Counted from the first letter of the stretch, positions 10,778 to 44,932 are shown. The stretch: DNA of 64,000 nt from an uncultured Chloroflexia bacterium (GCA_963816215.1 CAWFKB010000003.1:6839-70838); one strand, 5' to 3'. Numbers and translations: made by a program. The notes: generated by a model from the sequence alone, not told the origin.

Positions 10778-12822
10778 GTCGCGGGCGGTGCCGAGAGGCG
10801 CGTGACCTGCTGCTCGACCTCCGCAGGATCGGTGGTCGGGGCGTCGCAGGCGTAGCCACGGCACACGAAGGCGGTCGGCACCCCGTTGCGAGGAGCCTTG
10901 CCCGCGAACAACGGGCGTGAGTCGAGGGCGTCGCCCGGCGGGAGCGGCGCCATGACCACGTCGGGCGCGTAGGGTCGGGCCGCGGCCCGGCGAAGCGCCA
11001 CCGAGCGCTCGTCCTGCGCCATACCGGCCACCACCACGTCGGTGGCGGGCCGGCCCGCCCGGTCGGCCGCGCTCAGCATCCGCCCGAACCCGGTGGGCTG
11101 GCGTTCGAGTGCCGGGCCGACGGCGGCCAGGATCCGGCGCGCCCGTCGGTGATGCTCCTCGTCGCCCGCGAGGAGCGCGAGCCGCAGCCACACGTCGGCG
11201 GCCAAGGCATTCGCGCTGGGCGTGGCCCCGTCCACGAGCGATCGTGGTCGAGCCACGGTCTGCTCGTGCTCAGGTCCGGTGTCGAACAGCGTCCCGGACT
11301 CGTCGTCCCAGAAATCGGCCAGCAACCGTCCCATGAGCGCCTCCGCGAGGCGCAGGTCGTCTGGCTCGCCCAGCGCCCCGTAGGCCTCGAGCAAGCCGTC
11401 GGCCACGGCCGCGTAGTCCTCGGCGAAGCCGGGGGTATGCGCCTGGCCGTCGCGGGCCGTACGCCACAGGCGATCCCCGTCGTGCAGCAGCGTGCCGCGC
11501 ACGAACCGGACCAGTTCGCGGGTGCCAATCATGAACCGCTCCTCGCCCAGGACGAGCGCGGCGCAGGCGAAGGCGCGCAGGGCCATCCCGTTCCAGGCGG
11601 CGAGCTGCTTGTCGTCGCGCCCGGGCCGGACGCGCGATGAGCGGGCCGCGAGGAGCGCGGACCGAGCCCGCTCGAGATCGCGCGCCGCTGGGTGCGGGGC
11701 GTCGGCGACGTGGAGGATCGTGTGGCCCTCCCAGTTCCCGCCCTCGCGGAGATCCCAGTGGGCAGCGACGGCGTCCACGGCATACGGCTCGAGGCCTGCG
11801 TCCGCCAGCGCCGCCCGGGCGAGATCGGCATCCCACACGTAGAAGCGGCCCTCCTCGCCTTCGCTGTCGGCATCCAGGGCGGCGGCGAAGCCGCCGTCAT
11901 CGGTCCGTAGCTCGGCAAGGAGGAAGTCCAGGGTCGAGGCCGCGACCCGGGCGTATCGGTCTTCACCAGTTGCCCGGAAGGCTTCGAGGTAGGCGTGGGC
12001 CAGGAGGGCGTTGTCGTACAGCATCTTCTCGAAGTGCGGTGCGAGCCAGCGGACATCGGTGCTGTACCGCGCGAAGCCGCCTCCCAGCTGGTCGTGAATC
12101 CCGCCGTTCGCCATTCGGTCGAGGGTGAAGGTCACCATGTGGAGCGTCGCCGGGTCCCGGGTATCCCGCCAGCGGCGCAGAAGGAACTCGAGGGCCATGG
12201 GCGCCGGGAACTTGGGAGCGGGGCCGAATCCGCCCTCCCGCGGGTCGAATGCCGACGCGAGGCGCCGCACCGCGCCGTCGAGGATCGCATCCCCCGGTTC
12301 GGCACCCGCGACCGGCGCCGCCATCTGGGTCCGCAGGTGCTCCGCCAGGTGCGAGGCCACGTCGCTCACCTCGCCGCGTCGATCCCGGTAGGCCTCGGCC
12401 ACGCCATCGAGCACGGTCCCGAACGCGGGCAGACCGTGGCGGTCCGCTGGCGGGAAGTAGGTTCCGCCGAAGAACGGCTCCAGGTCCGGGGTCAGGAACA
12501 CGCTCAGCGGCCAGCCGCCCGACCCGGTCATGGCCTGTACCGCGGCCATGTACACGTCGTCGATGTCCGGACGCTCCTCGCGGTCCACCTTGATGGCCAC
12601 GAAGTCGCGGTTCAGGCGTTCCGCCAACGCCGGATCCTCGAACGACTCGTGGGCCATCACGTGGCACCAATGACAGGCCGAGTAGCCGATGGACAGGAAG
12701 ATCGGCCGATCCTCCGTCCGCGCCCGGGCCAGCGCCTCCGGTCCCCACGGGTACCAGTCGACCGGGTTGTCGGCGTGCTGGAGCAGGTACGGGCTCGTCT
12801 CACCCGCCAGGCGGTTGCTCAC
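10774..12822 (-). CDS. Thioredoxin-domain (DUF255) protein fused to an N-acylglucosamine 2-epimerase-like domain (YyaL/SSP411-like)
   Basis: N-terminus [21 protein letters not shown]...[11 protein letters not shown]. Confidence 0.85.
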
Positions 12823-12899
12823 GATGGACCGATCGTATCGGACGGCGCTCGCTGTTCCCCGGATTGCATCCGCGATTGACCCCGGCCCGCCACGGTCGG

Positions 12900-12918
12900 C
12901 ATACTACCCCGGAGTATG
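12900..12918. promoter_or_regulatory. Candidate CsoR/RcnR-type operator (CATACT-ACCCCGG-AGTATG) over the RBS and first ATG of the CsoR-family gene
   Basis: AT-rich inverted repeat flanking a G/C tract, matching the TACT-G6-N-AGTA architecture of RcnR/CsoR type-1 operators. Confidence 0.5.
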
Positions 12919-13263
12919 GACATGACCGATCCCGCCCACTTTCGCCACAGCTACTCCCGCGACCGCAAGGAGCTCCTGAACCGCCTGCGGCGGATCGAGG
13001 GCCAGGCGCGCGGCATCCAGCGGCTGGTCGACAACGAGGCGTACTGCCTCGACATCCTCCAGCAGGTGGAGGCCATGACGGCCGCCGCCGACCAGGTGGC
13101 GATGCTCGTCCTCGAGGACCACATCGACGGCTGCCTGACCCACGCGATCGACTCGGGGCAGGGGGAGCCGTACGTCCGCGAGGTGATGCAGGTGGTCCGC
13201 AGGGCGATGGGCCGGCCGGCGGCACGGCGAAGCCGACGGGGCGCCGGGGCGCCCACGGGGTAG
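12916..13263 (+). CDS. CsoR/RcnR-family metal-sensing transcriptional repressor
   Basis: 115 aa. Fingerprint residues Y-C (NEAYCLD) and H-x3-C (HIDGC), plus an N-terminal His. Confidence 0.8.
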   Translation: MDMTDPAHFRHSYSRDRKELLNRLRRIEGQARGIQRLVDNEAYCLDILQQVEAMTAAADQVAMLVLEDHIDGCLTHAIDSGQGEPYVREVMQVVRRAMGRPAARRSRRGAGAPTG

Positions 13264-13343
13264 CAGACGGGAGTGCCGCAGGGGGGAACCACGGCACTCC
13301 CGGTCCCGACTATACGAGCGACGGTCAAGCCGACCGACCGGGT

Positions 13344-16175
13344 CTACTCCCCGAACATGGTGAGCTGTTTGCCGCCGCGCTCGACCAGTGGATCGAGGCC
13401 GATCATCGGCTCCAACCACTCCATCCGGGCCCCGTCGCGGGCCACCAGGGCTTCCAGATGCGGCCACTTCAGGACGTGCCAGTTCTGGCGTTCCATCTCG
13501 GCCCGCAGCCACGGGGAGCGGGCGATCTTCAGGCGCAGCAGCTCCGTTCGTTCGGCGGGAATGACGAGGAAGCGGGCCTGCTGTTCCGAGGTCGGGATCT
13601 GCGCGCCGCGGCGCAGGACGGCGTCACCGATCATGGCCGTCCACTCCACCTCGAACAGGTAGCTGGACCGATTCCGGACGTACCACAGGGCGTCCACCGC
13701 GCCGAGCACCTCGGCCGGAGCGCGAATCACGAGCGGGAGGTAGGTACGCCGCTCGTCTTCCTTCAGCAGGTCGGCCAGGGCGCCGTGGCGCCACGGGCGA
13801 TCCTGCTCCCGGCGGCTGACCCAGGCCCGGAGCCCGAGCCGGTGCCCGAAGTCCACGATCCCGGCAATGATCCTGGTGTGGTCCGCCATCCGGGCCGCGA
13901 GATCCTCCTCGGAGCGGATGTGGCCCCGCTCCCCCACCGTCCCGTAGGCGCCGAGGCAGGCACGAACGAGCTCTTCGTCGGGCGAGGACGTGCCCGGGAA
14001 GAGGGCGTAGATGCGATCCAGGAAGGCCGATTCGTCGAGGCGACCGGCCGTCGTGAGCAACGAGAACGTGGCCCATTCCACCCGATCGGCGATCGTGCCC
14101 TCTCCCAGGGTGGGCTCGCGCAGCCACCATGACGGACGTGGCCCGTCGTCCCCCACCCGAACCAGGCTCGGATGGTCGTCGCGCCACAGCTCCTCCCGGA
14201 GCAGGACGGCCAGCAGGGCTGGCCCGCCGCGGTCGACGCGCCCGGCTTGCTCGTCCGCCGCTTCCCCTGGGGCGTCGCCTGCCTCGCCGTCCGATCGCGC
14301 CTGGACGAGGCGGCGCAGCAGCCCGGTACGCTCGAGCTCGATCAATGCCGCGCATGCGATCCGCGCCAGGCCGGCGGGCTCGCCTCGCTCCCGTAGGAGG
14401 TTCACCGCGGCCCGCTCGATCGCGCCGGCGAGCTCGGGATAGGTGAGATGCCCGCCCTCGGCGCCCAGGCGGAGGGGCTTGGGGCGGACGGCGTCGCGCA
14501 GGCGATCTTCGGCCGAGGCGCGCCGGAAATGGAGGGTCACCCCATCCCCCACCCTCCCCGACTCTCGGGGAATGGCGTGCACGAGCTCCAGCTCCGCAGC
14601 CGCGGCAGCCAGGGCCACGGCCAGAACGCGGTCCGGGTCGTCGCCCTCGAGCAGGACCGTGCACCAGCCACCCGGTTTCAGGGCGCCTGTCGCCGAAGCG
14701 AGCGCGTGCCGGAAGGCGGTCACCTCCGCCCCCTCGGAACGGGCCGAGCCGCCGCCGAACAGCGGCTCCAGGCGCAGGGTCTCGGCCGCTTCGCGCCCCA
14801 TCAGCCAGGCGGTGGCCAGGTACTCGAAGCTCAGCTCGTCGACGCTTTCGGGAGGCGGTGGCGAACCGATGACCAGGTCCACGCTCTCGGGCGGCAGGTA
14901 CTGACCCACGACCGCGGGCCGGCATCGGATCCACAGCAGGTTGGCCGCGCTCATCCCGCCCAGCTCGTCCAGATCGGCGGCGAAGCGCACGGGACGGCGG
15001 TCACGGCCCAGGGCCGCGAGCGCTGTGCGCACGTCCTGATAGGCGACCTCGAACAGGCGCCACACGTTCACCTCGCGGTGATGACGGGACGCGGGCTGGC
15101 GGACGTGGCCGCCGCTGATGCGCAGCGACGCGACGCGGCCGGGATACCCGTTCAGACGGCTGGCGGGGAGCAGGCAGCCGGCCAGCGCAAGGCGGAACAC
15201 GGCGGCCAGGGGCTGGTCATGGAACTCCGCATCGATCTTGTTGGCGATCGTCTGGAGGGCGTACAGGTTGCGCGAGGTGTACAGGTCCAGCACCTCATCC
15301 ACCACGTCGCCCCGCTCGTCCAGCACGGGAAACCGGTCGCGCAGCTGCTGGTAGGCCAGGCCCTGGCGGACATCGGTCCCCACTGGGGCGGGAAGCGGCG
15401 TGGGCCGCACGGTTGACGCGTAGCGGGGACCCTCCGAGGCGGTGAGCGACATCGGCGGATCGGGCGCCCGCGCGGGTGGCGGTGGAGGCCCGCCGGGCTC
15501 GCCCAGCGGGGCCAACGGCGGGGGCTCGGTCGCTCCGGCGTCCCCGATCAGCCCCATTGGGGCGGGCGGCAGATCCTCGTCTGCATCGGCTGCCGGTTCG
15601 ACACCGGCCGCTGGCTCGGCCGGTGGAGGCGGTTCCAGCCCCAGCTTGGCGTAGTCCGATTCGTCCACCGGCGCCACGCGCTCGTCAGGACCGCCCAGGG
15701 CCACGTCACACGCGGCGCATCGGTACACCTTGCGGCCGGGCGCATCGCCGTCCCGGGGCCAGATGAACTCCTCCGCCATGACCGGGCGGCTGCAGACCGG
15801 GCAGCGGGACGCGTAGAGCTCCTCGATGTGCTGACGGAGCGGGATGTCCACCCGACGCGAGGAGGCGAGCTGCGCAAACGCCGCATCGACGGACGCCACC
15901 TCGGGGGCCAGGAGGAAGGCCTGGGCCGCCATCTGGGCGAACGGGCTGGCCTCGGCGGCCACGACCCGCATGCCGTGCGCGACCGCGCGACGGGCTGTCC
16001 AACCGGTGCCGGCCCATGGGTCGAGGATCGTGTCGCCCGACGTGGCGAACGACGCCAGCTCGGCGTCGAGGACGTTATCGGCCGGGGAGGGAAAGTAGCG
16101 CTCGAGCAGGGCGAGTCCCGGTAGGCGCCTCGGAAGGACGACGTGGTCGAGTCTCTTCCGTTCGGCCAAGGTCAT
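13344..16175 (-). CDS. Large (943 aa) N4/N6-methyltransferase-like protein with a Zn-ribbon insert, Pro-rich linker, degenerate catalytic motif IV and an unknown C-terminal domain
   Basis: N-terminus ILDPWAGTGWTARRAVAHGMRVVAAEASPFA resembles the SAM-binding end of PF01555 (DPFAGSGTT). CPVCS...CAAC ribbon. Motif-IV-like VDLVIGSPPPPE lacks the aromatic residue. GC3 checked at about 90% in the C-terminal part. Confidence 0.7.
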   Translation of the reverse strand: MTLAERKRLDHVVLPRRLPGLALLERYFPSPADNVLDAELASFATSGDTILDPWAGTGWTARRAVAHGMRVVAAEASPFAQMAAQAFLLAPEVASVDAAFAQLASSRRVDIPLRQHIEELYASRCPVCSRPVMAEEFIWPRDGDAPGRKVYRCAACDVALGGPDERVAPVDESDYAKLGLEPPPPAEPAAGVEPAADADEDLPPAPMGLIGDAGATEPPPLAPLGEPGGPPPPPARAPDPPMSLTASEGPRYASTVRPTPLPAPVGTDVRQGLAYQQLRDRFPVLDERGDVVDEVLDLYTSRNLYALQTIANKIDAEFHDQPLAAVFRLALAGCLLPASRLNGYPGRVASLRISGGHVRQPASRHHREVNVWRLFEVAYQDVRTALAALGRDRRPVRFAADLDELGGMSAANLLWIRCRPAVVGQYLPPESVDLVIGSPPPPESVDELSFEYLATAWLMGREAAETLRLEPLFGGGSARSEGAEVTAFRHALASATGALKPGGWCTVLLEGDDPDRVLAVALAAAAAELELVHAIPRESGRVGDGVTLHFRRASAEDRLRDAVRPKPLRLGAEGGHLTYPELAGAIERAAVNLLRERGEPAGLARIACAALIELERTGLLRRLVQARSDGEAGDAPGEAADEQAGRVDRGGPALLAVLLREELWRDDHPSLVRVGDDGPRPSWWLREPTLGEGTIADRVEWATFSLLTTAGRLDESAFLDRIYALFPGTSSPDEELVRACLGAYGTVGERGHIRSEEDLAARMADHTRIIAGIVDFGHRLGLRAWVSRREQDRPWRHGALADLLKEDERRTYLPLVIRAPAEVLGAVDALWYVRNRSSYLFEVEWTAMIGDAVLRRGAQIPTSEQQARFLVIPAERTELLRLKIARSPWLRAEMERQNWHVLKWPHLEALVARDGARMEWLEPMIGLDPLVERGGKQLTMFGE

Positions 16176-16180
16176 CGCGG

Positions 16181-17008
16181 CTACGTCTCTTCGAGCAGTT
16201 CCTCTTCTTCATCGGGCTCGCTCGAGAGCTCCGGAAGGCTGGTGTCGAGCTCCTCGACCTCTTCCGGCTCTTCTTCGGACTCCTCCGACTCGTCGTCGTC
16301 ATCGTAGCGGAGGGCACTGCCCTTCATATACGGTCGAACGTCACTCGTACGGCCCGCCGCCGCGCCCGGGAACGACACCCGACCGAAGTTCGCCGGGTGG
16401 GCGAACACCTCGCGGATGATGAGTCGCAGATCGTCGTTCGTGACGGTGGTCAGGGCCGCCTCGTACCGATTTCCCTTGGCCATGAGGTCGAGCAACCGGT
16501 TCGCGACCCGCGGTTCCACCTGGCCCACCTTGATCCCGCGGACCTTGGCCTCGAGCTCGCCATCGGCCGCGTGGAGCTCGATCGCATCGCCGGCGGAGAG
16601 CGGCGCCAGCTGCCTGGCCGGCGCGAGGTTGATGAGTCGGGCGCTGCCGGTCTTGCCCATCTCCTCGATGAACAGCGCGGCGGGGGCACGGGCCGCATGC
16701 CGGTCGCCGCGGGTCGTGCCCTCGGACGCGATCAGGGCCTGAAGCCGCTCCACGTTCCGCTCGGCAATCCGATTCGTGCGCTCCCGCTCGAGGGCGGACT
16801 GGTAGGCCTCCAGCGCTTCGGGCAGGCGGTCGAGCTCAGCCAGGGCCTTACCGAGCCGGTTGTAGGCGTCCACGTCACCGCCCAGCTCCACGATCTGGCG
16901 GTTGGTGTCGACCGATTCCTCCCACTCGCCGCGCGCAGCCTGGGCAATCGCAATTTCGGCGAGCTGGCGGCGCTGGCGGGTGGTGGCGTCAGGATCCCCG
17001 GCGGTCAT
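16181..17008 (-). CDS. TPR-repeat protein with an uncharacterised middle domain and a C-terminal polyacidic tail
   Basis: Start at MTAGDPD. Tail DDDDESEESEEEPEEVEELDTSLPELSSEPDEEEELLEET. Its stop lies 5 nt upstream of the downstream 943-aa gene start. Confidence 0.65.
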   Translation of the reverse strand: MTAGDPDATTRQRRQLAEIAIAQAARGEWEESVDTNRQIVELGGDVDAYNRLGKALAELDRLPEALEAYQSALERERTNRIAERNVERLQALIASEGTTRGDRHAARAPAALFIEEMGKTGSARLINLAPARQLAPLSAGDAIELHAADGELEAKVRGIKVGQVEPRVANRLLDLMAKGNRYEAALTTVTNDDLRLIIREVFAHPANFGRVSFPGAAAGRTSDVRPYMKGSALRYDDDDESEESEEEPEEVEELDTSLPELSSEPDEEEELLEET

Positions 17009-17127
17009 GGGCGAGCGACTCTCCCCGGAAATTGATGAAAAAGGCGAAACGGCGCCGCGTTCGACCAGCGGAAACCGTCGGAGGGCGACACTTTCTATCA
17101 CCGACCCCCCGGAGTGTCAACGCGATT

Positions 17128-17916
17128 TCAGCTCCGGCTCAGGAAGAGCGCCACGAAAGCGCCGATGACGGCCAGCGAGCCGTACTCCAGGGCGACTGCC
17201 CGATTGGGTACGCCGGACTCGAGCGCGTCGGCCGCTCCGCTCCAGGCGTGGAAGGTCAGGGCGATCAGCGCGGAGCCCACTGGTTGGGGCAGGTCGAGCA
17301 GGATCAGGGCGGTCGCAACCTGGAGCACGACCAGCAGGTGCAGCGCCCCATGGCCTACGGCCGGCACGCCGACCGCTCCCCGGGCCTCCGCGGCCCGCAG
17401 GCAGGGCACCGCGACCAGGATGGCCAGCAGCACGATCTGGAGCAGCCACAGCTCCGACGGAATCACTCCTGCCAGGCCGACCGCGGCGCAGAACACGGTG
17501 AAGACCAGCAGCAGGTCGAGCGACAGGCGATTGGTGGGGGCCGTGGGGCCCATCCGCTCGGTGTAGAGGGTCCACCACAGGAAGGCCCAGGCCACGGGCG
17601 CGGCCAATGGACCGATGCCGGGCGGCAGCAGCCGCCCGGCCAGGGTGATCGATACCGTGGCCACGGCCAGGATCGCGTAACGCGCGTACCCCACCGACGC
17701 GCGAGCCGCGCCCAGGAGGGCGGCCATGCCCAGGCCGGCCAGGGCCAGCTCGAGGGCCAGCACGCCGGCCAGGGCCACCATGTCGACGACCCAGCCCGCT
17801 GCGACGAGCGCGGCGAGAATCAGGGGCAGGGCGACGGGTCCCGCACGCTTCACGGCCCGCGCGCCCCGCACGCGTCCCGCGCGGAAGAGTCGCCGGCGAT
17901 CCGCGACCGCGCTCAT
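17128..17916 (-). CDS. Hypothetical polytopic membrane protein
   Basis: 6-7 predicted TM helices. Start overlaps the PolX stop by 4 nt. Confidence 0.55.
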   Translation of the reverse strand: MSAVADRRRLFRAGRVRGARAVKRAGPVALPLILAALVAAGWVVDMVALAGVLALELALAGLGMAALLGAARASVGYARYAILAVATVSITLAGRLLPPGIGPLAAPVAWAFLWWTLYTERMGPTAPTNRLSLDLLLVFTVFCAAVGLAGVIPSELWLLQIVLLAILVAVPCLRAAEARGAVGVPAVGHGALHLLVVLQVATALILLDLPQPVGSALIALTFHAWSGAADALESGVPNRAVALEYGSLAVIGAFVALFLSRS

Positions 17917-19661
17917 CGCAGCAGCTCCCCGGCGCTGCGAGTGGTGGCCACCTGCTCGGCCGCGAGGCCTGCCCGGCGGGCGACGCCGACCGCGTAATCG
18001 AGGTATCCCAGCTCCTCGGTTCGGTGCGCATCGCTCGACAGCGTGAGCCGCACGCCGGCCCGGGCTGCGTCCCGCGCCAGCCGTTCGTCCAGGTCGAGGC
18101 GCGGGCTGCCGTTGATCTCGAGCAGGGTGCCGGTGCGAGCGGCGGCCTCGAACAATTCGGGCCAGTGGAATGAGACGGGCTCGCGCCGGTTCACGATCCG
18201 CCCGGTGGGGTGGGCAATGATGTCCACGTGGGGGTTCTCGATCGCGGCGAGGGCCCGCTTGGTGAGCTGATCGACCGGCTGGCTGCGAGCGGCGTGGATG
18301 CTGGCCACCACCACGTCGAAGGTGGCGAGCAGCTCGTCGGGATAGTCGAGGGTCGCATCGGCCAGGATTTCCATCTCGGTACCGTGCAGGATGCGGAACG
18401 GGCTGAGCTCCCCGTTGAGGCGGTCGATCTCTGCCCGTTGCTCGGCCACCCGCTCCGGCGACAGCCCGCGCGCCACGCCCAGCGACGGGGAGTGATCGGT
18501 CAGGACCATGTACTCCAGGCCCGATGCGCGGGCGGCGCCGGCCATGGTCTCGATGTTGTCCACGCCATCGGTCCAGTTCGAGTGGGTATGGGTGTCACCC
18601 CGGATGTCGCCCCGCTCGACGAGGTGCGGCAGCGTGCCCGCCGCGGCGGCGGCCACCTCGCCCTCGCCCTCGCGCAGCTCGGGCGGCACCCACGCCATGT
18701 CCAGACGGGCGTAGACGTCTTCCTCGGTCGCGGCCAGGAGCAGCTCTCCGGTCTCCACGTCCTTGAACCCCTTCTCGCTCAGGGATAGCCCCCGGTCCTG
18801 GGCCCGGGCGCGGAGCTCGACGTTGTGCTCCTTGCTGCCGGTGAAGTGGACGAGATGCGAGCCCCAGGCCTCGGGACGGCACAGCATGAGGTCCACCTGC
18901 CGGTCCCCGTCGGCTCGCAGCACCACGCTGGCCTTGTCGGTCCCCGCGTTGAGCACCCGATCGACGTCCGGTAGCTGCTCGAATACCCTGATCAGCTCCG
19001 CTGGATCGTCGCAGGCGGCCAGGACGTCGAGGTCGCCGATCGTAGCCCGCCGGCGCCGCAGCGACCCGGCGGCCGCGATCTGATGAATACCCGGCACCCG
19101 GCCCAGGCCGGCCAGGATCTCGGCGGCCAGCCGGTCGGCATCGTGGAGGAGAAGCCGGCCGGATTGCTGTTCCAGGCGTCCGATCCCGGCCAGGATGTTC
19201 TGCTCGGTCCGAGCCGACATGCCGCTTACCTGGCGCACGCGCCCGGTTTCCGCCGCGGCTCGCAGCTCGTCGATGGAGGTGATGCCCAGCTCCACGTGAA
19301 GCTGGCGCGCGGTCCGCGGCCCAACTCCGCTGATGCGGAGCACGTCCAGGAGGCCGGGTGGGATCTGCTCTCGAAGGCGCTGGTGGTACTCGAGCTTCCC
19401 GGTCGTGGCCAGCTCGGTCAGCCGCGCACCGATGGCCGGGCCCACGCCGGCGATTTTCGGTGTGTGACCGTCCACCACGAGCGGAGCCAAGTCCACGGGA
19501 TAGCGCTCGATGGCATCGGCCACCCGTCGGTAGGCGACCGCCTTGTAGGGAACTTCGTCGAGGAGATCGAGGAGGTCGCCCACTTCCCGGAACGTTGCCG
19601 CCAGCTCGGCGTTGCTCAACCCGCCGCGGGCAGAACGAGTGACGGGGCGGGGTCGTGGCAT
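17913..19661 (-). CDS. polX: DNA polymerase X family protein with a C-terminal PHP (phosphoesterase) domain
   Basis: HhH motifs and the Pol-beta-like nucleotidyltransferase GSLRRRRATIGDLDVL. PHP metal ligands GDTHTHS and LTDH. Confidence 0.9.
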   Translation of the reverse strand: MPRPRPVTRSARGGLSNAELAATFREVGDLLDLLDEVPYKAVAYRRVADAIERYPVDLAPLVVDGHTPKIAGVGPAIGARLTELATTGKLEYHQRLREQIPPGLLDVLRISGVGPRTARQLHVELGITSIDELRAAAETGRVRQVSGMSARTEQNILAGIGRLEQQSGRLLLHDADRLAAEILAGLGRVPGIHQIAAAGSLRRRRATIGDLDVLAACDDPAELIRVFEQLPDVDRVLNAGTDKASVVLRADGDRQVDLMLCRPEAWGSHLVHFTGSKEHNVELRARAQDRGLSLSEKGFKDVETGELLLAATEEDVYARLDMAWVPPELREGEGEVAAAAAGTLPHLVERGDIRGDTHTHSNWTDGVDNIETMAGAARASGLEYMVLTDHSPSLGVARGLSPERVAEQRAEIDRLNGELSPFRILHGTEMEILADATLDYPDELLATFDVVVASIHAARSQPVDQLTKRALAAIENPHVDIIAHPTGRIVNRREPVSFHWPELFEAAARTGTLLEINGSPRLDLDERLARDAARAGVRLTLSSDAHRTEELGYLDYAVGVARRAGLAAEQVATTRSAGELLR

Positions 19662-19702
19662 CGGCGCATTCTACGAACCGCAGCCGAATTGCAGAAAGCA
19701 CG

Positions 19703-19728
19703 AAGCCGGGCCCGTCGGCCCGGCTTCG
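19703..19728 (-). terminator. Intrinsic-terminator-like hairpin (11-bp GC stem, 4-nt loop) downstream of the small basic-protein gene
   Basis: GAAGCCGGGCC cgtc GGCCCGGCTTC, followed on the minus strand by UUCGUGCUUUCU. Confidence 0.45.
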
Positions 19729-19750
19729 AAATTGGTTGGTTGTGGTTGGC

Positions 19751-19912
19751 TTATCGCGTCCGGCGCAGTGCGCGCGGCAAGCTCAGGCCGAACATTCGGC
19801 TTCGGCGGCGACGTGGGACTTCGGTGATGTACCGCTCCCGGTGTGCCTCCTCGAGCAGCTCGCGCTGCCGGATGGACGCGATCAAGGCCATGTAGGTCAG
19901 CCCGCGGCTCAT
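19751..19912 (-). CDS. Small (53 aa) highly basic hypothetical protein
   Basis: Strong SD AAGGAGGAAACAGG before the ATG. MSRGLTYMALIASIRQRELLEEAHRERYITEVPRRRRSRMFGLSLPRALRRTR. Sits in a low-GC intergenic island with a terminator hairpin downstream. Confidence 0.5.
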   Translation of the reverse strand: MSRGLTYMALIASIRQRELLEEAHRERYITEVPRRRRSRMFGLSLPRALRRTR

Positions 19913-20042
19913 CCTGTTTCCTCCTTGTCCAAAACCGATGCCCCCTGACTGGCGAACTCCAGCTTGCATCGGTAACTATTGCAGAACACTTTATCGGTTA
20001 CGAATGATAGATTGCTGTCAGTAACTTGTCAACCTACCTATA

Positions 20043-20726
20043 ATGGTTACGACAATGCGCCCCCCGACAGACGTCCTTCCCGAACCCCCGTCCACCGACC
20101 TCTGGGTCCGGTTCGTCAACACCGAGACCTTCACCCGCGGGCGGTCCACCGATCACATCGGCCAAGGGGACGCGCTGGTGGCCTGGCTGCGCGACGCGCG
20201 GCTTCTCTCGGATCGAGCAGCGAGTGCCGAGCGCGCCCAGCTTCGCGACGACCCCGAAGAAGCGAGCCGTCGCCTGGAGGACTACCGCGCCCTGCGCGAC
20301 CTGATTCGGGCGATGGCCGTGGAGCTGACCACGGGCGGCGAGCTGCAGCGTGGACAGGTCCGCGACCTGAATCACATCCTCCGTCGTGGTCTCCACTACC
20401 ACCAGCTCGAGACGAACATCGATGGCAACCAGTACGCGCTCGCGCGCGTGGGCGACCGGCTGGACCAGGCCCGAGCCACGGTGGCCGGAACGTTTGCCGA
20501 ATACCTCGCCGGGCGCGACCTGCGCCGGCTGCGCATCTGCGCCAACGACGGTTGTCGCGAGATCTTCATCGACCGATCCCCCACCGGGCGGCGACGCTGG
20601 TGCACCATGCGGACCTGCGGCAACCGGGCCAAGGTGGCGCGCCACCGAGAACGGCACCGGGCTGACGCAAGCGTTCCGCCGCCGGACATGACTGGGACAC
20701 TTCCCGCCGGAGCCATCGCGCACTAG
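20043..20726 (+). CDS. ABATE-domain / CGNR zinc-finger protein
   Basis: C-terminal RRWCTMRTCGNRAKV zinc finger. Real start may be the second ATG at 20055. Confidence 0.8.
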   Translation: MVTTMRPPTDVLPEPPSTDLWVRFVNTETFTRGRSTDHIGQGDALVAWLRDARLLSDRAASAERAQLRDDPEEASRRLEDYRALRDLIRAMAVELTTGGELQRGQVRDLNHILRRGLHYHQLETNIDGNQYALARVGDRLDQARATVAGTFAEYLAGRDLRRLRICANDGCREIFIDRSPTGRRRWCTMRTCGNRAKVARHRERHRADASVPPPDMTGTLPAGAIAH

Positions 20727-40905: not shown

Positions 40906-42059
40906 TCGAGCTGTTCCAGGGAGCGTGGGTCCGGGAGCGTCGGCTGTTGGCAGCGTTCCTGATCGCCGGCACGGTCTACTTCGGGCTGATGGCCATCGGC
41001 TTGATCCTGAACATCCTGACCGGTTTCCAGGACATCCTGGTCGCCCTGTTCATGGCCTGGCTGCTGGCCTTCCTGATCTCGCCCCTCGTCCACCGGGTCC
41101 AGGATCGGCTCAAGGTCGGCCGCGGCGCCGCGGTTGGCGTGGCGTTCGGGGTGACCCTCATCGGCCTGGGCACGTTCCTCCTGGTCATCGCCGCGGTCAT
41201 GGTCTCGGACCTGGCCAACTTCATCGGCACCTGGCCCTCACGCGAAGATCAGCTGGCCCAGCAGATCCGCGACCTCCAGCAGGCGATCGGCTTCGAGGAG
41301 CCGGACCTGGCCGTCATCTTCATCGGTGTCATCGACCAGGTCGGCAGCCTGGGCGGTGATCTCGCCGGCTCGGCGGGGGCGATTGCGAGCGGAGCCTTCA
41401 GCGCGGTCGGAACCCTGTTCCTGGTCGTTCTGCTTGCCTTCTTCATGGTCCTGGACAGCCACAAGATCATGGTCTGGTTCAGCCGACTCGTTCCCAGCCG
41501 GCTCCGTGAACAGTCGCTCCTCCTCCAGGAGGGGGTCGCCCGTTCATTCGGCGGGTTCATCCGGGCCCAGACGGTGCTCGCCCTCTTGATGTTCACCGTG
41601 GTCATCCTGGTGGGCCTCGTCGCGCGCGCCCTGGGCGGGATGGAATACATCTTCGTGACCGCGGTCGTATCGGGGCTGCTGATGTTCATCCCCATGATCG
41701 GCCCGGTCCTGGCCCTGGTACCGCCCATCTTCATCGCCTTCCTCACTAGCGAGAACTGGGTCGTGGCGCTGGTCGCGGTCGCGGTCATCGTCATCGTCCA
41801 GACGGTCATGGTGAACGTGCTCCAGCCCAAGATGATGCAGGAGTCATTGGGCCTGCACCCCATCCTCCTGTTCGTCGGCCTGCTGGTCGGCGTCCAGATC
41901 GCCGGACTGTGGGGCGCGCTCTTCGGCATCCCGATCTTGGCCGTGATCGTCATCTTCGTGAACCACTGGGTGGACGTGTACCGACCGCCGGACCCCGAGT
42001 TCGTGGCCGAGGTCGAAAGCGTGCATGCGCAGGTGACGCAGGGGGACACCGGGACCTAG
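40902..42059 (+). CDS. AI-2E family transporter (PerM/YhhT-like)
   Basis: 8-TM topology typical of the family. Confidence 0.8.
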   Translation: MIELFQGAWVRERRLLAAFLIAGTVYFGLMAIGLILNILTGFQDILVALFMAWLLAFLISPLVHRVQDRLKVGRGAAVGVAFGVTLIGLGTFLLVIAAVMVSDLANFIGTWPSREDQLAQQIRDLQQAIGFEEPDLAVIFIGVIDQVGSLGGDLAGSAGAIASGAFSAVGTLFLVVLLAFFMVLDSHKIMVWFSRLVPSRLREQSLLLQEGVARSFGGFIRAQTVLALLMFTVVILVGLVARALGGMEYIFVTAVVSGLLMFIPMIGPVLALVPPIFIAFLTSENWVVALVAVAVIVIVQTVMVNVLQPKMMQESLGLHPILLFVGLLVGVQIAGLWGALFGIPILAVIVIFVNHWVDVYRPPDPEFVAEVESVHAQVTQGDTGT

Positions 42060-42833
42060 TTCGGGCTGCCTCCGCGTCCCGAGAGGGCGAGGGCGGCGGC
42101 CAGAGAGATCTCGAATACGCGCGAGACCGTGGCCGGCTGAAGCACGTCGGCCGCCGGCCCATCGGCCACGATCCGACCCTCGCTGAGGAGGACCACGCGC
42201 GGGTCGGCGAGCGCGGTCAGGGCCGGATCGTGGAGCACGGCCACGACCGCTATCCCGCGCGATCGTCGGAGCCGCTCCAGCATGGCCAGGAGAGCGACCT
42301 GGTGGGCCAGATCAAGGTGCTGGGTCGGCTCGTCCAGCAGAAGAAGCCGCGGCTCCTGGGCCAGGGCCATGGCCAGCACCACCCGTTGGCGTTCCCCACC
42401 GGACAGCTCATCAATCGTGCGCCCCACCAGGTCGGTGGCGCCGGCATCCACCAGCGCCTGCTGCACCGCGTCCGCGTCCTCGGTGGTGGCCCCGAACCGG
42501 GAACGGGCGTGCGGCGCCCGGCCCATCTCGACCAGCTCCTCGACCCGGAACCCCTCTGGAAGGGTGGGGATCTGGGGAAGGACGGCCACGCGCTGGGAGA
42601 CCTCGCGCCGGCTCCACTCGCCGATCAACCGGTCGTCCAGGCGCACCGCGCCGCTCTGCGCGCTGAGCAGCCCGGTGGCCAGGCGCAGGAGCGTGGTCTT
42701 GCCGCTCCCATTCGGTCCGAGCAACGCGACCATCTCCCCGGGGGCGATGGCCAGGCTCACGCCGCGCAGCACGGTCCGGTCGGGCCGCCCGCGCCGCCGA
42801 TACGCGAACTGGACGTCGTCCATGGCCAGCATG
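42056..42833 (-). CDS. Iron-chelate/cobalamin-type ABC transporter ATP-binding protein (FecE/BtuD-like)
   Basis: Walker A GPNGSGKTT, LSGGERQRV signature and LLLLDEPT Walker B. The upstream part of the tracked ORF is spurious. Confidence 0.85.
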
Positions 42834-42867
42834 GGCGCATGCTCCGAGTACACGGCAGGCACGGCAC

Positions 42868-43959
42868 TCACGGGGTGCCCGGCCCCCCGACCGAGCGATG
42901 GAGCAGCCACAGGAAGAACGGGGCACCGATCAGTGCGGTGATGACCCCCACTGGAACGCCGCCCAGCAGCCGCGCCCCGAGGTCCGCCAGGACGAGCAGC
43001 GACGCACCGCCGAGGCAGCTCATGGGCAGGAGGAGCCGATGGTCCGGCCCCAGCGCGAGACGAACGACGTGCGGCACGACCAGGCCGACGAACCCGATCG
43101 TTCCGGCCAGAGCGACCGCCGCCGAGGTGACGAGGGTGGCGAGCATGATCAGCGTCCGTCGAGCCCGCACGAGGTCGACCCCCAGGCCGGCGGCCGCCTC
43201 GTCGCCCAGGAGCAGCAGGTTCAGCGTCCGCCAACGCAGAAGGAGCAGGACCGATCCGCCCAGGATGAGCGGGGCGGCGATGGCGAGCTCGGAATAGCCG
43301 GTTCCTCCCAGGGAACCGAGTAGCCAGCCCACGACCGATGCCAGCGCCCGTCCGGCGCTGACCAGCAGGAGGGCCACGCCGGCGGCCAGCAGGGACGAGA
43401 CCGCATAGCCGGTCAGCAGGAGCGTGACCATGCTGGATCGACCGCCCTGGCGGGCAACGACAAGGACCAGCGTTACGGCGCCCAGGCCGCCGACGAAGGC
43501 AAGGACCTGGGCCAGACCGATGCCCAACCACGCCGACCCGGCCCCCACCGCGAGCGCGGGCAGCAGGATAGGAGCGGTGATGGCCAGCACGGCGCCCAGC
43601 GACGCGCCGGCCGCGCTCCCGATGATGTACGGATCGGCCATGGGATTGCGGAGCAGCGCCTGGAACACGACGCCCGCGCACCCCAGGCCGGCACCTACCA
43701 ACGCCCCGGCCAGGACCCGCGGCAGCCGAACCTCGAACAGGATGGTGGGCGCGGTGGCCGACCACGTCTCGTGGACCGACAGCCCGAGCCGGTGAGCGAT
43801 GATGGCCAGGGCCTCGCCAAGGCCCACGTCGGCGCTGCCCAGGCCGATGGCGACGACCATCGAGGCCGCCAGGACCAGGACGCCGCCGCCGATGACCAGC
43901 GTCGAGCGGGCAAGGCTGGGCCCCCCGACCAGCGGACGCGCGGCGACCGAGGCCCGCAC
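42868..43959 (-). CDS. FecCD-family ABC transporter permease
   Basis: FecCD/BtuC-like polytopic permease. Start approximate. Confidence 0.8.
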   Translation of the reverse strand: MRASVAARPLVGGPSLARSTLVIGGGVLVLAASMVVAIGLGSADVGLGEALAIIAHRLGLSVHETWSATAPTILFEVRLPRVLAGALVGAGLGCAGVVFQALLRNPMADPYIIGSAAGASLGAVLAITAPILLPALAVGAGSAWLGIGLAQVLAFVGGLGAVTLVLVVARQGGRSSMVTLLLTGYAVSSLLAAGVALLLVSAGRALASVVGWLLGSLGGTGYSELAIAAPLILGGSVLLLLRWRTLNLLLLGDEAAAGLGVDLVRARRTLIMLATLVTSAAVALAGTIGFVGLVVPHVVRLALGPDHRLLLPMSCLGGASLLVLADLGARLLGGVPVGVITALIGAPFFLWLLHRSVGGPGTP

Positions 43960-43966
43960 CGTCAGC

Positions 43967-44932
43967 TCACTCGAATACGTCGGGATGGATGGCGCGGGCC
44001 AGGGCCTCGAGCCCGTCCACGATCCGCGGACCGGGGCGCGTGATGACCGGGTCATTGGCCATGACAAAGACCTGGCCCGCGGTCACCGCGGTCATTGCTT
44101 CCCAGCCGGGCCGCGCGGCAACCGACTCGGGCGTGATGGACAGGTCGTAGGCCGCGTCGCCCAACAGGATGATCAGCGGGTCAGCGGCGATCAGATCCTC
44201 CAGGGAAATCGACGTCGTCAGCGCATCCCCGGTGACGGGTATTCCACCCGCGATCTCGATCAGGCTGGAGAGGAACGAATCCTCTCCCGCGGTGTAGATG
44301 GTTCCCTCGAACACCCCCACCTCATAGAAGACAGTGGGCACGACAGACGGGACCGCGTGTCGAACCACGTCGATCCGGTATTGCATGTCCGCCGTGAGAT
44401 CCGCCGCCTCCTGCGGGGCGTTGATGGCCTCGCCGACCAGCGTGATGTTGTCCAGGACCGCGTCCAGGGTCTCGGGGTACAGGACGAGGACCGGGATGTC
44501 GAGGTCCGCGATCTGGGTGATGACCGCGCTGGGCGTCAGCTCATTGCCGGCGGCAATGACGAGATCCGGATCAGCTTCGACCACGAGCTCGACGTCCACC
44601 ACCGCGCCGATGACCACGTCGGGCACCTCGGCCACCTCGGCCGGGTAGTCGTCGAAGTCGGTGACGCCCACCAGGCGGTCGCATGCGCCGAGCGCGCACA
44701 CGATCTCGGTGTTCGACGGGGCGAGACTGACGATCCGCTGCGGCTCGGCCGGGAGCGCAACGGCGCGACCGGCGTCATCGGTCAGGGAAAGGGGATAGCT
44801 GGTCTCGGCCGGAGCCAACGGAGATGGAGACGATGGCGCGCTGGCGCTGCTGGATGGCCCCGGACTGGAAGGCTGGCAGGCAACGGCCAGCACGAGAAGG
44901 AGTCCAAGAAGGGGCACACGGCACGAGCGCAA
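43967..44932 (-). CDS. ABC transporter substrate-binding lipoprotein, BtuF/siderophore (helical-backbone) class
   Basis: LAVACQ lipobox and the RIVSLAPSNTEI motif. Cobalamin riboswitch directly upstream. Confidence 0.8.
   Translation of the reverse strand: MRSCRVPLLGLLLVLAVACQPSSPGPSSSASAPSSPSPLAPAETSYPLSLTDDAGRAVALPAEPQRIVSLAPSNTEIVCALGACDRLVGVTDFDDYPAEVAEVPDVVIGAVVDVELVVEADPDLVIAAGNELTPSAVITQIADLDIPVLVLYPETLDAVLDNITLVGEAINAPQEAADLTADMQYRIDVVRHAVPSVVPTVFYEVGVFEGTIYTAGEDSFLSSLIEIAGGIPVTGDALTTSISLEDLIAADPLIILLGDAAYDLSITPESVAARPGWEAMTAVTAGQVFVMANDPVITRPGPRIVDGLEALARAIHPDVFE

Follow-up and report, generated by a model that had tools for sequence, protein, structure and literature searches.

A 64,000-nucleotide (nt) window of DNA from an uncultured Chloroflexia bacterium (GCA_963816215.1, CAWFKB010000003.1:6839-70838; hereafter, the window, meaning the whole stretch that was analyzed) contains a string of four genes that encode, in the direction of transcription, a family-X DNA polymerase (PolX), a polytopic membrane protein, a TPR protein with a HIRAN-like barrel and an acidic tail, and a 943-amino acid (aa) protein derived from restriction-modification enzymes. 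We tentatively read the last two products, at slightly less than an even chance, as a vertically inherited, restriction-derived DNA-processing pair that is linked to PolX repair. The four genes and the promoter that lies among them are as follows.

17913-19661, minus strand: polX, bacterial family-X DNA polymerase with a C-terminal PHP domain (582 aa; NCBIfam and Pfam matches, motifs)
17128-17916, minus strand: polytopic membrane protein (262 aa), its start overlapping the polX stop by 4 nt
17092-17120, minus strand: predicted internal promoter of the TPR/943-aa pair (-35 box TTGACA at 17115-17120; 17-nt spacer; TG at 17099-17100; -10 box TAGAAA at 17092-17097)
16181-17008, minus strand: TPR/HIRAN-like/acidic-tail protein (275 aa; TPR helices at residues 6-96)
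13344-16175, minus strand: 943-aa restriction-modification-derived protein (N6/N4 methyltransferase-like fold, zinc ribbon, winged-helix-like middle, NmeDI-like C-terminal domain)

Conservation and transcription units of the gene string

The open reading frame (ORF) listing of the window places all four co-directional genes on the minus strand at the coordinates given in a first-pass annotation of this DNA, and the 4-, 119-, and 5-nt junctions reported there are present in the sequence: the polX stop and the ATG of the membrane protein gene overlap by 4 nt (ATGA), the membrane protein gene is 119 nt from the TPR gene (counted from the TPR ATG at 17008), and the TPR stop is 5 nt from the ATG of the 943-aa gene. 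A mechanical ORF call puts the TPR start at GTG 17101, whereas ATG 17008 is most likely the true start, because it is preceded by a ribosome-binding site (GGGGAGAG) and because the 275-aa length is common to about 120 homologs. The window has a GC content of about 70% throughout and contains long spurious ORFs in each frame; therefore, coding status was judged by homologs. The 943-aa protein had 468 matches and the TPR protein 1801; the latter total is swollen by generic TPR matches, although each of the 120 best listed is a full-length Limnocylindria homolog. All four proteins were recovered using tblastn in 80 related genome loci (Limnocylindria, species level), and the nearest relatives of each come from metagenome-assembled genomes (MAGs) of Candidatus Limnocylindria (Chloroflexota), with one locus 97% identical. 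The host is a Candidatus Limnocylindria bacterium (uncultured soil Chloroflexota). Limnocylindria are abundant uncultured bacteria of soil and freshwater.

Across the 80 species-level Limnocylindria loci, in which the 943-aa protein is 61–97% identical, and with each gene scored where the locus extends far enough upstream, the 943-aa gene is preceded by the TPR gene in 70/70, by the membrane protein gene in 66/66, and by polX in 60/60. The genes on the flanks are conserved to varying degrees (CsoR in 69/74 loci, CGNR in 37/53, aldehyde dehydrogenases in most), and the distance of YyaL ranges from 0.5 to 6.2 kb. The same order (PolX, membrane protein, TPR protein, 943-aa protein) was found in each contig of a second lineage that reaches far enough (L087, L094, L098, L101, L104, L107, L109, L111, and L112), even though identities to the window proteins are only 37–41% for the 943-aa protein, ~50% for PolX, and about 48–51% for the TPR protein. 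In this lineage, the membrane protein has a positional counterpart with 24% identity that has invariant polar residues in common with it, the downstream gene is DUF885, replacing CsoR, and the Limnocylindria flanking genes are nearly all missing, with the exception of a distant MgtE-like match ~6 kb upstream in L109. By these comparisons, the two pairs remained neighbors on both sides of a deep split, with turnover of the genes around them. The joint module proposed in the first-pass annotation hinged on homologs of the four genes lying together in other genomes, and they do so in 60/60 to 70/70 of the Limnocylindria loci and in the second lineage.

Spacing and promoter signals divide the string in two. 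The -4 overlap between polX and the membrane protein gene is kept in 61/66 loci, and the gap between the TPR and 943-aa genes is 0–9 nt in most Limnocylindria loci (median 6 nt); the gap between the membrane protein and TPR genes is always 87–277 nt (median 114 nt). All 66 aligned Limnocylindria gaps carry CGCGTTGACAcc, followed after ~17 nt by GGTGnTACAA, a conserved block that reads as a -35 box and an extended -10 box of the TTGACA-17-TGnTAnAA type; our consensus promoter scan skipped it because its -10 box ends in A. Downstream of it come a GC hairpin and then GGAGA as the ribosome-binding site, and in the single second-lineage locus that was read (L087), TTGACG-17-TGCTACAAG stands ahead of the TPR gene. 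In L087, L096, L114, and L125, a gene for a 744-aa protein on the opposite strand lies between the two pairs. Given the gap promoter and this inserted gene, the string is not a single operon in the sense of co-directional genes that, wherever the cluster occurs, run without interruption from one promoter and have no further promoter or terminator between them. It is better described, by sequence, as two tightly coupled gene pairs with separate promoters that are kept adjacent, with read-through between them possible: unit 1 would comprise a leaderless polX and a translationally coupled membrane protein gene, and unit 2 the TPR and 943-aa genes. The idea of a joint module put forward in the first-pass annotation is thus upheld in part, in that the order is kept and three of the four proteins have DNA-related folds, and has to be amended in that there are two separately promoted pairs, not one operon.

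Some variation was observed around these junctions in the second lineage. The 744-aa protein (L087 3109-5343, minus strand) has no family match and a hydrophobic segment at its N-terminus. The spacer between the TPR and 943-aa genes is 280–364 nt in L087 (6420-6782) and L086 (168-447), compared to ~6 nt in Limnocylindria, and holds short repeats (tcacgggc / gtcgcg / gactcacgg), possibly a small inserted element; in L109, the two genes are close together or overlapping.

Domain structure of the 943-aa and TPR proteins

Profiles, models, and alignments bear out the identities given in the first-pass annotation to the four products (PolX-PHP, membrane protein, TPR protein with an acidic tail, and N4/N6 methyltransferase-like protein). 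The parts of the 943-aa protein (first five lines) and the TPR protein (last two) are listed below.

15996-16025, minus strand: motif I (S-adenosylmethionine [AdoMet]-binding loop), LDPWAGTGWT, residues 51-60, from alignment to TTHA0409 and M.RsrI
15708-15803, minus strand: zinc ribbon CxxC...CxxC, residues 125-156, with four (nearly) invariant Cys family-wide
15378-15650, minus strand: proline-rich disordered insert, residues 176-266 (predicted local distance difference test [pLDDT] < 50 over 189-266), missing from distant homologs
14844-14873, minus strand: decayed motif IV position, VIGSPPPPES, residues 435-444 (GSPPPP, no aromatic residue)
13440-13901, minus strand: NmeDI_C / PD-(D/E)xK-like C-terminal domain, residues 759-912 (D828, E842, E844, K883)
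16403-16651, minus strand: HIRAN-like six-stranded beta-barrel, residues 120-202 (Foldseek against PDB)
16184-16306, minus strand: acidic C-terminal tail, residues 235-275 (...EEPEEVEELDTSLPE..EP..EEELLEE), 24/41 Asp or Glu, disordered in the model

The 943-aa protein matched no Pfam family at E ≤ 0.1 and no NCBIfam family above threshold, and PADLOC returned just weak MTase_II and mad2 matches, at motif I. A sequence search of PDB matched residues 24-88 to motif I of the beta-class DNA methyltransferases TTHA0409 and M.RsrI; PDB searches with the protein and with its C-terminal profile found no nuclease. An exhaustive representative search collected 1225 relatives, including full-length ones at 26–42% identity. 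The AlphaFold2 model (pLDDT 81.4; predicted template-modeling score 0.80), which has a second disordered insert at residues 628-650, matched methyltransferases exclusively in Foldseek, including Trm11 (3e-4) and TTHA0409 (4e-3) in PDB and a Pandoravirus N4-cytosine DNA methyltransferase in BFVD (2.6e-6, 635 columns). As modeled, the protein has a class I Rossmann methyltransferase fold.

The catalytic motifs of this fold differ in their conservation. Motif I is the same in 100 of the 118 Limnocylindria orthologs, the others differing by conservative substitutions (pattern LDPW(A/S)G(T/I)GWT), and the acidic residue of motif II (Glu or Asp) is retained in these orthologs. The catalytic motif that looked inactive in the first-pass annotation is motif IV, which lacks an aromatic residue and is unconstrained in the 118 orthologs, its position being hypervariable (GSPPPAGS, GAPPPPES, GSVTDAAT, SSVADAPS, and others). 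The first-pass impression is thus correct, and the comparison of orthologs puts it on firmer ground than one sequence could. We rejected filing the 943-aa protein as a DNA methyltransferase, as it lacks the (D/N/S)PP(Y/F/W) motif IV that defines the N6/N4 DNA methyltransferases (PF01555) and falls below all curated thresholds. Canonical DPFxGSGVT and TDPPY occur only in three distant members (P0210, P0229, and P0260), the majority of the family being degenerate. These three and P0313, which was called canonical from profile matches alone, pass Pfam N6_N4_Mtase (59–77 bits; cut-off 26.7) and match PADLOC PglXI (E 6e-38 to 2e-72) as well as several type II methyltransferase models. Because the canonical members match N6_N4_Mtase and PglXI, the 943-aa family is taken to descend from DNA methyltransferases of the PglXI/type II-like kind.

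Conservation in the 943-aa family is highest over the C-terminal 190 residues. The domain located there is modeled with the order alpha-beta-beta-beta-alpha-beta (pLDDT > 90), and D828, (E/D)842, E844, and K883 are conserved among the 118 Limnocylindria orthologs. PADLOC REase_II matches 7/21 C-terminal domains of the family (best E 2.2e-6, profile positions 177-265 of 351), and homologs carry precomputed Pfam matches to PF27126 (NmeDI_C) that are faint to unmarked. Several distant subfamilies lost the D...ExE set (FVVQW, VVRW, or FIFRE instead), and the non-catalytic blocks LYTxRNLYAL, ExNVW, and RGEP are invariant while most of the family lost motifs I and IV. The pattern of substitution, the most informative of these results, suggests that methyl transfer is lost in this lineage, with the cofactor loop and the nuclease-like residues still under selection.

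The TPR protein matches Pfam TPR_1 (30.5 bits; cut-off 27.8), and its AlphaFold2 model (pLDDT 72) consists of five helices at residues 6-96, a beta domain at residues 120-202, and a disordered tail. In Foldseek, the TPR part resembles TPR proteins, including the EEVD-binding HOP, Sti1, SGT, and Sec72. The beta domain is a barrel that matches the bacterial protein lp_0118 (3k2y; E 5.6e-4, template-modeling [TM] score 0.70) and the DNA-bound HIRAN domain of HLTF (4s0n; E 1.1e-3), together with the further HIRAN structures 4xzg, 6kcs, 5bnh, and Rad5 (6l8o), at TM scores of 0.56–0.70 and a root-mean-square deviation of 2.1–2.6 Å over ~93 columns. The order of its strands and helix agrees with the six-stranded HLTF barrel (PMC4666394), and phmmer of the segment against PDB found nothing relevant; the modeled barrel is HIRAN-like by fold alone, without sequence support.

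The tail of ~40 Asp/Glu-rich residues described in the first-pass annotation is confirmed, the last 41 residues holding 24 Asp or Glu. It is nearly invariant (DVRPYMKG..LRYDDE.EESEE.EEEPEEVEELDTSLPE.S.EP..EEELLEE) in 34 homologs that are 64–94% identical, and the TPR protein of the second lineage also ends in an acidic tail. Conservation of its sequence, and not just of its composition, argues for a specific binding partner rather than mere bulk charge. The ‘DNA mimic’ and ‘DNA-modification sensing’ readings of the first-pass annotation are speculation.

The membrane protein has roughly 5–8 hydrophobic segments based on hydropathy (a crude count, as segments overlap) and no family match in Pfam, NCBIfam, or PADLOC; DUF5656 is weakly matched by 3/35 of its orthologs.

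Interpretation of the two gene pairs

Under the reading that we tentatively favor, the 943-aa protein would be a domesticated restriction-modification fusion that holds DNA via its methyltransferase-like and winged-helix scaffold, may bind AdoMet as a cofactor or signal instead of a methyl donor, and may nick or cleave DNA with its NmeDI-like C-terminal domain. The HIRAN-like barrel and the acidic tail of its putatively co-translated TPR partner would bring the 943-aa protein to DNA or hold it off, with the TPR serving as a protein-binding module and the tail possibly occupying the DNA-binding groove or recruiting another factor. The adjacent PolX could then finish repair of the resulting ends or gaps by gap filling and by its 3'-5' exonuclease and AP (apurinic/apyrimidinic)-endonuclease activities. 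We infer here both a physical complex of the TPR and 943-aa proteins and their cooperation with PolX. The points counted for this reading are the synteny, the tight coupling within each pair, the folds, the selective pattern, and the precedent for such a PolX neighborhood (see below). A stronger form seems to us rather unlikely: here, an AdoMet-binding, methylation-dead nuclease, domesticated in Limnocylindria-type Chloroflexota as a core factor of genome maintenance and controlled or targeted by its undescribed TPR/HIRAN-like/acidic-tail partner, would join the leaderless polX-membrane protein operon in a new DNA-damage or DNA-end processing pathway.

A number of results weigh against a DNA-processing pair linked to PolX repair. 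With respect to regulation, separate promoters and the opposite-strand gene inserted in part of the second lineage imply that co-expression of all four genes is not required; no LexA/SOS box (GAAC-N4-GTTC) was found in either promoter region, and Rfam gave no matches over 12500-20500, so no RNA element joining the units was detected there. With respect to the proposed activities, the C-terminal domain of the window protein itself falls below all restriction endonuclease profile thresholds, and structure and sequence searches recovered no solved nuclease structure. The HIRAN-like barrel has no Pfam HIRAN match even at E ≤ 10, and hhalign of its profile against the HLTF HIRAN domain (HLTF sequence verified as identical to the PDB entries) was not significant (E 0.057, 24 columns); in that alignment, the segment VGQVEPRVANRLL..LM pairs with HLTF QVGHLKKELAGALAYIM. 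The HLTF pocket for single-stranded DNA or its 3'-end includes Y72, N90, N91, and Y93 among its residues, the last three on one loop (PMC4666394), and the turn between strands 2 and 3 of the barrel is a short AADGE with no Asn or aromatic equivalent of N90, N91, and Y93. With respect to conservation, the two cluster-bearing lineages are probably related, and two lineages provide few independent observations. Finally, neighborhood conservation among homologs of the 943-aa protein, which the first-pass annotation had asked about, holds for Limnocylindria and the second lineage and does not extend to homologs at 24–33% identity (Anaerolineae and other Chloroflexota). These are solitary among housekeeping genes, with no PolX, TPR, or comparable membrane protein neighbor in the loci examined, and their synteny is subfamily-specific (followed by Lon in one subfamily; DJ-1, Cob adenosyltransferase, and AP_endonuc_2 in another). 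By sequence comparison, the PolX/TPR link is specific to these two lineages and is not a property of the whole 943-aa family.

A rival explanation is that synteny reflects descent only, i.e., that four functionally unrelated genes were left unseparated in a slowly rearranging region and that the 943-aa protein is a decayed relic with another role. In its favor, three separate promoter/terminator signals lie within the string, other nearby genes are strongly syntenic in the class (such as CsoR, in 69/74 loci, and those for the aldehyde dehydrogenases, in the majority), the solitary distant homologs have lineage-specific neighbors per subfamily, and PolX neighborhoods are class-specific (PMC9226535). 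However, the four genes remain together in the second lineage at 37–50% identity with nearly all tested flanks replaced, the tight coupling persists inside each pair, and DNA-related folds occur in 3/4 products. We consider descent alone possible, even if doubtful, as an account of the string.

An immune or toxin-like module is improbable. It would consist of a methylation-independent nuclease derived from type IIG or bacteriophage exclusion (BREX) enzymes, possibly dependent on modification or AdoMet, with the acidic partner as a DNA-mimic inhibitor or sensor and PolX unrelated to it. Family members do match PADLOC PglXI, type II methyltransferase, and REase_II models, nuclease-like residues are retained while methyl transfer is lost, the polyacidic tail of the partner is conserved, and two of the subfamilies with an intact D...ExE set have the TPR partner; in other triad-keeping subfamilies, however, this partner is missing. 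Vertical inheritance does not fit such a module, nor does a position that is fixed, with housekeeping genes on its flanks, across 80 or more species-level genomes, nor does the surrounding DNA, which contains no defense island, mobile-element signature, or BREX partner gene nearby. Unlike in fast-turnover defense genes, identity of the 943-aa protein across the class (61–97%) is in the range of PolX. An assignment to anti-phage defense (restriction-modification or BREX) was tried and failed on the decayed motif IV, the housekeeping neighbors, and the fixed position; PADLOC had no matches for PolX or the membrane protein.

We consider it very improbable that the 943-aa protein serves, without catalysis, as a scaffold or ligand sensor for RNA or protein and not for DNA, and that it resembles restriction enzymes by ancestry alone: the best PDB fold matches are indeed tRNA/rRNA methyltransferases (Trm11, TrmM, and Bud23), and motifs I and IV are gone from most of the family, as is the nuclease triad from several subfamilies, while non-catalytic blocks are invariant, but these PDB matches are weak and of a kind that Rossmann methyltransferase folds generally give, the canonical relatives are clearly DNA methyltransferase-like (PglXI 2e-72, Pfam N6_N4_Mtase, and the Pandoravirus N4-cytosine methyltransferase), and motif I and the D...ExE...K set are constrained in this lineage.

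Comparison with known systems and the surrounding region

As the first-pass annotation had stated, no described operon corresponds to the string: the tools and libraries queried and the literature searched on NmeDI, bacterial HIRAN, Limnocylindria DNA repair, and PolX operons are silent on it. The closest comparisons for the 943-aa protein are the type IIG/IIC, BREX PglXI, and COG1743/DUF1156 methylases, with which it shares the Rossmann fold, a motif I close to the N-terminus, an inserted zinc ribbon, and a motif IV position far from motif I; like fused restriction-modification enzymes, it also has an endonuclease-like domain in the same polypeptide. It differs from type IIG and PglXI proteins in its decayed motif IV and in reaching no curated threshold, in being encoded by a vertically inherited gene at a fixed housekeeping position instead of in a variable defense island, and in having a TPR/HIRAN-like partner instead of specificity, helicase, or BREX proteins. 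The C-terminal 150–190 residues of family members match REase_II (PDLC03534), the profile length of which (351) is that of NmeDI; R.NmeDI is a type II restriction endonuclease of 351 aa, and its description does not say if the half matched here is catalytic or used in DNA recognition (PMC2095814). These family matches are weak to faint, and absent for the window protein itself, in which the domain is fused to an apparently dead methyltransferase. The putative triad is D...ExE, which is BamHI-like, and not D...ExK.

Compared to HIRAN domains (HLTF, Rad5, and lp_0118), the barrel of the TPR protein has the same six-stranded order, whereas it shows no significant sequence similarity and no HLTF pocket loop, and its fusion to TPR repeats and an acidic tail is a combination without description in the literature searched. 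Acidic DNA-mimic or partner-recruiting tails are found in Ocr/ArdA-type mimics, the SSB C-terminal tip, and the EEVD-TPR pairs of Hsp70/Hsp90. The tail of the TPR protein is likewise long, Asp/Glu-rich, disordered, and conserved in sequence, and it contains EEVEELD; unlike in Hsp70/Hsp90, this EEVE is internal and not at a free C-terminus.

For polX, the Bacilli provide a partial precedent. In that class, polX shares an operon with the genes for a CvpA/Colicin V membrane protein and for the nuclease MutS2, and PolX neighborhoods are specific to each class (PMC9226535). Compared to the Bacillus zapA-cvpA/yshB-polX-mutS2 arrangement, polX in the window is likewise predicted to be co-operonic with a small polytopic membrane protein and adjoins a nuclease-type protein, whereas the membrane protein has no detectable CvpA/Colicin V relation, the neighbor is restriction-derived and not MutS2/Smr, and zapA is missing.

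What appears to be new, judged by homology and gene order, is a TPR/HIRAN-like/acidic-tail protein paired with a restriction-derived pseudo-methyltransferase and linked to PolX; its function is proposed from these features. If correct, the proposal would describe a restriction-modification enzyme that was exapted into a vertically inherited housekeeping role, with the methylation loop drifting and the cofactor and nuclease-like sites constrained. It would also provide a lineage-specific partner set for bacterial PolX, the in vivo pathway of which is poorly defined, and place the HIRAN-like fold in a bacterial architecture new to it, and a defined repair module would aid the reading of Limnocylindria genomes. 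If the function fails, annotation value remains: two ‘hypothetical’ proteins gain domain descriptions, and an apparent operon is split into real transcription units.

PolX itself is regular. It passes the NCBIfam NF006375 equivalog (482.3 bits; cut-off 426; E 2e-144; residues 25-580), carries Pfam HHH_8, HHH_5, DNA_pol_B_thumb, and PHP domains, and contains GSLRR, GDLDVL, VDLML, and HFTGSKEHN. Canonical, polymerase-competent PolX is defined by an Asp triad (DxD...D) and a deoxynucleoside triphosphate site composed of GSxRR and xxTGSKxHx (PMC9226535), and based on its motifs the window protein is of this canonical type and predicted to be polymerase-competent. The PHP domain of PolX has 3'-5' exonuclease and AP-endonuclease activity (PMC2566882, PMC9226535). 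The following features were identified upstream of the gene.

20004-20032, minus strand: sigma-70-like promoter TTGACA-17-TATCAT upstream of the small ORF (consensus scan, 11/12 matches; a consensus match alone)
19751-19912, minus strand: conserved 53-aa ORF (MSRGLTYMALIASIRQRELLEEAHRERY...; MSRGLTYMALIASIRQRELLEEAHRERYITEVPRRRRSRMFGLSLPRALRRTR) just upstream of polX, with a strong AAGGAGG ribosome-binding site
19701-19728, minus strand: intrinsic-terminator-like hairpin between the small ORF and polX (12-bp stem with 10 G-C pairs, then a T-rich run)
19668-19673, minus strand: TAGAAT -10 box, 6 nt before the polX ATG, universally conserved across the aligned loci

The 53-aa ORF lies upstream of polX in 30 Limnocylindria loci (38–100% identity, tblastn) with a codon-like pattern of conservation in the alignment, and was undetected in the second lineage. 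The stem of the terminator-like hairpin is maintained via compensatory changes in other loci, and TAGAATGG is the sole strongly conserved block upstream of polX among the aligned loci. The start region of polX (19659-19673, minus strand) has no Shine-Dalgarno sequence. Because of this, and because the conserved TAGAAT is only 6 nt before the ATG, the polX mRNA is probably leaderless.

The genes surrounding the string are ordinary ones; they encode a CsoR-type repressor, a YyaL thioredoxin-domain protein, a UPF0047 protein, an LCP protein, a CGNR zinc-finger regulator, MgtE, and two aldehyde dehydrogenases. The CsoR/RcnR-type metal-sensing repressor gene (12916-13263, plus strand) converges on the 943-aa gene and lies 80 nt from the stop of the latter.

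Additional arrangements were observed around distant homologs of the 943-aa protein. In one subfamily, the homolog is divergently adjacent to recA-recX (L083/L084 5716-7870, minus strand). A HEAT-repeat protein is encoded divergently from the homolog in L088 (6485-7510, minus strand) and L092 (4170-5222, minus strand), with two small genes intervening in L092, and the L088 protein ends in an acidic tail (...DNEEEMLEATSDEPDEERESEE), a loose parallel to the TPR/acidic-tail partner. An acidic-tailed helical-repeat protein as a general partner of the family was considered and set aside, given the intervening small genes and the other subfamilies that are without such a protein. A stand-alone HD-domain protein (211–220 aa) neighbors the homolog in L081 (7150-7812, plus strand) and L091 (154-789, minus strand), and the subfamilies of these two loci keep the nuclease-like motif FEVEWT without a TPR partner.

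In two cases, the cluster occurs twice, complete or nearly so, on different contigs of one MAG (L053 and L064 in MFD01275.bin.2.46; L055 and L062 in LH_M65), which reflects either true duplication or the binning of two strains together. Within the window, AT skew is 0.287 in the 2-kb bin 42001-44000 (GC 0.727), far above the remainder, in which its magnitude is at most ~0.13.

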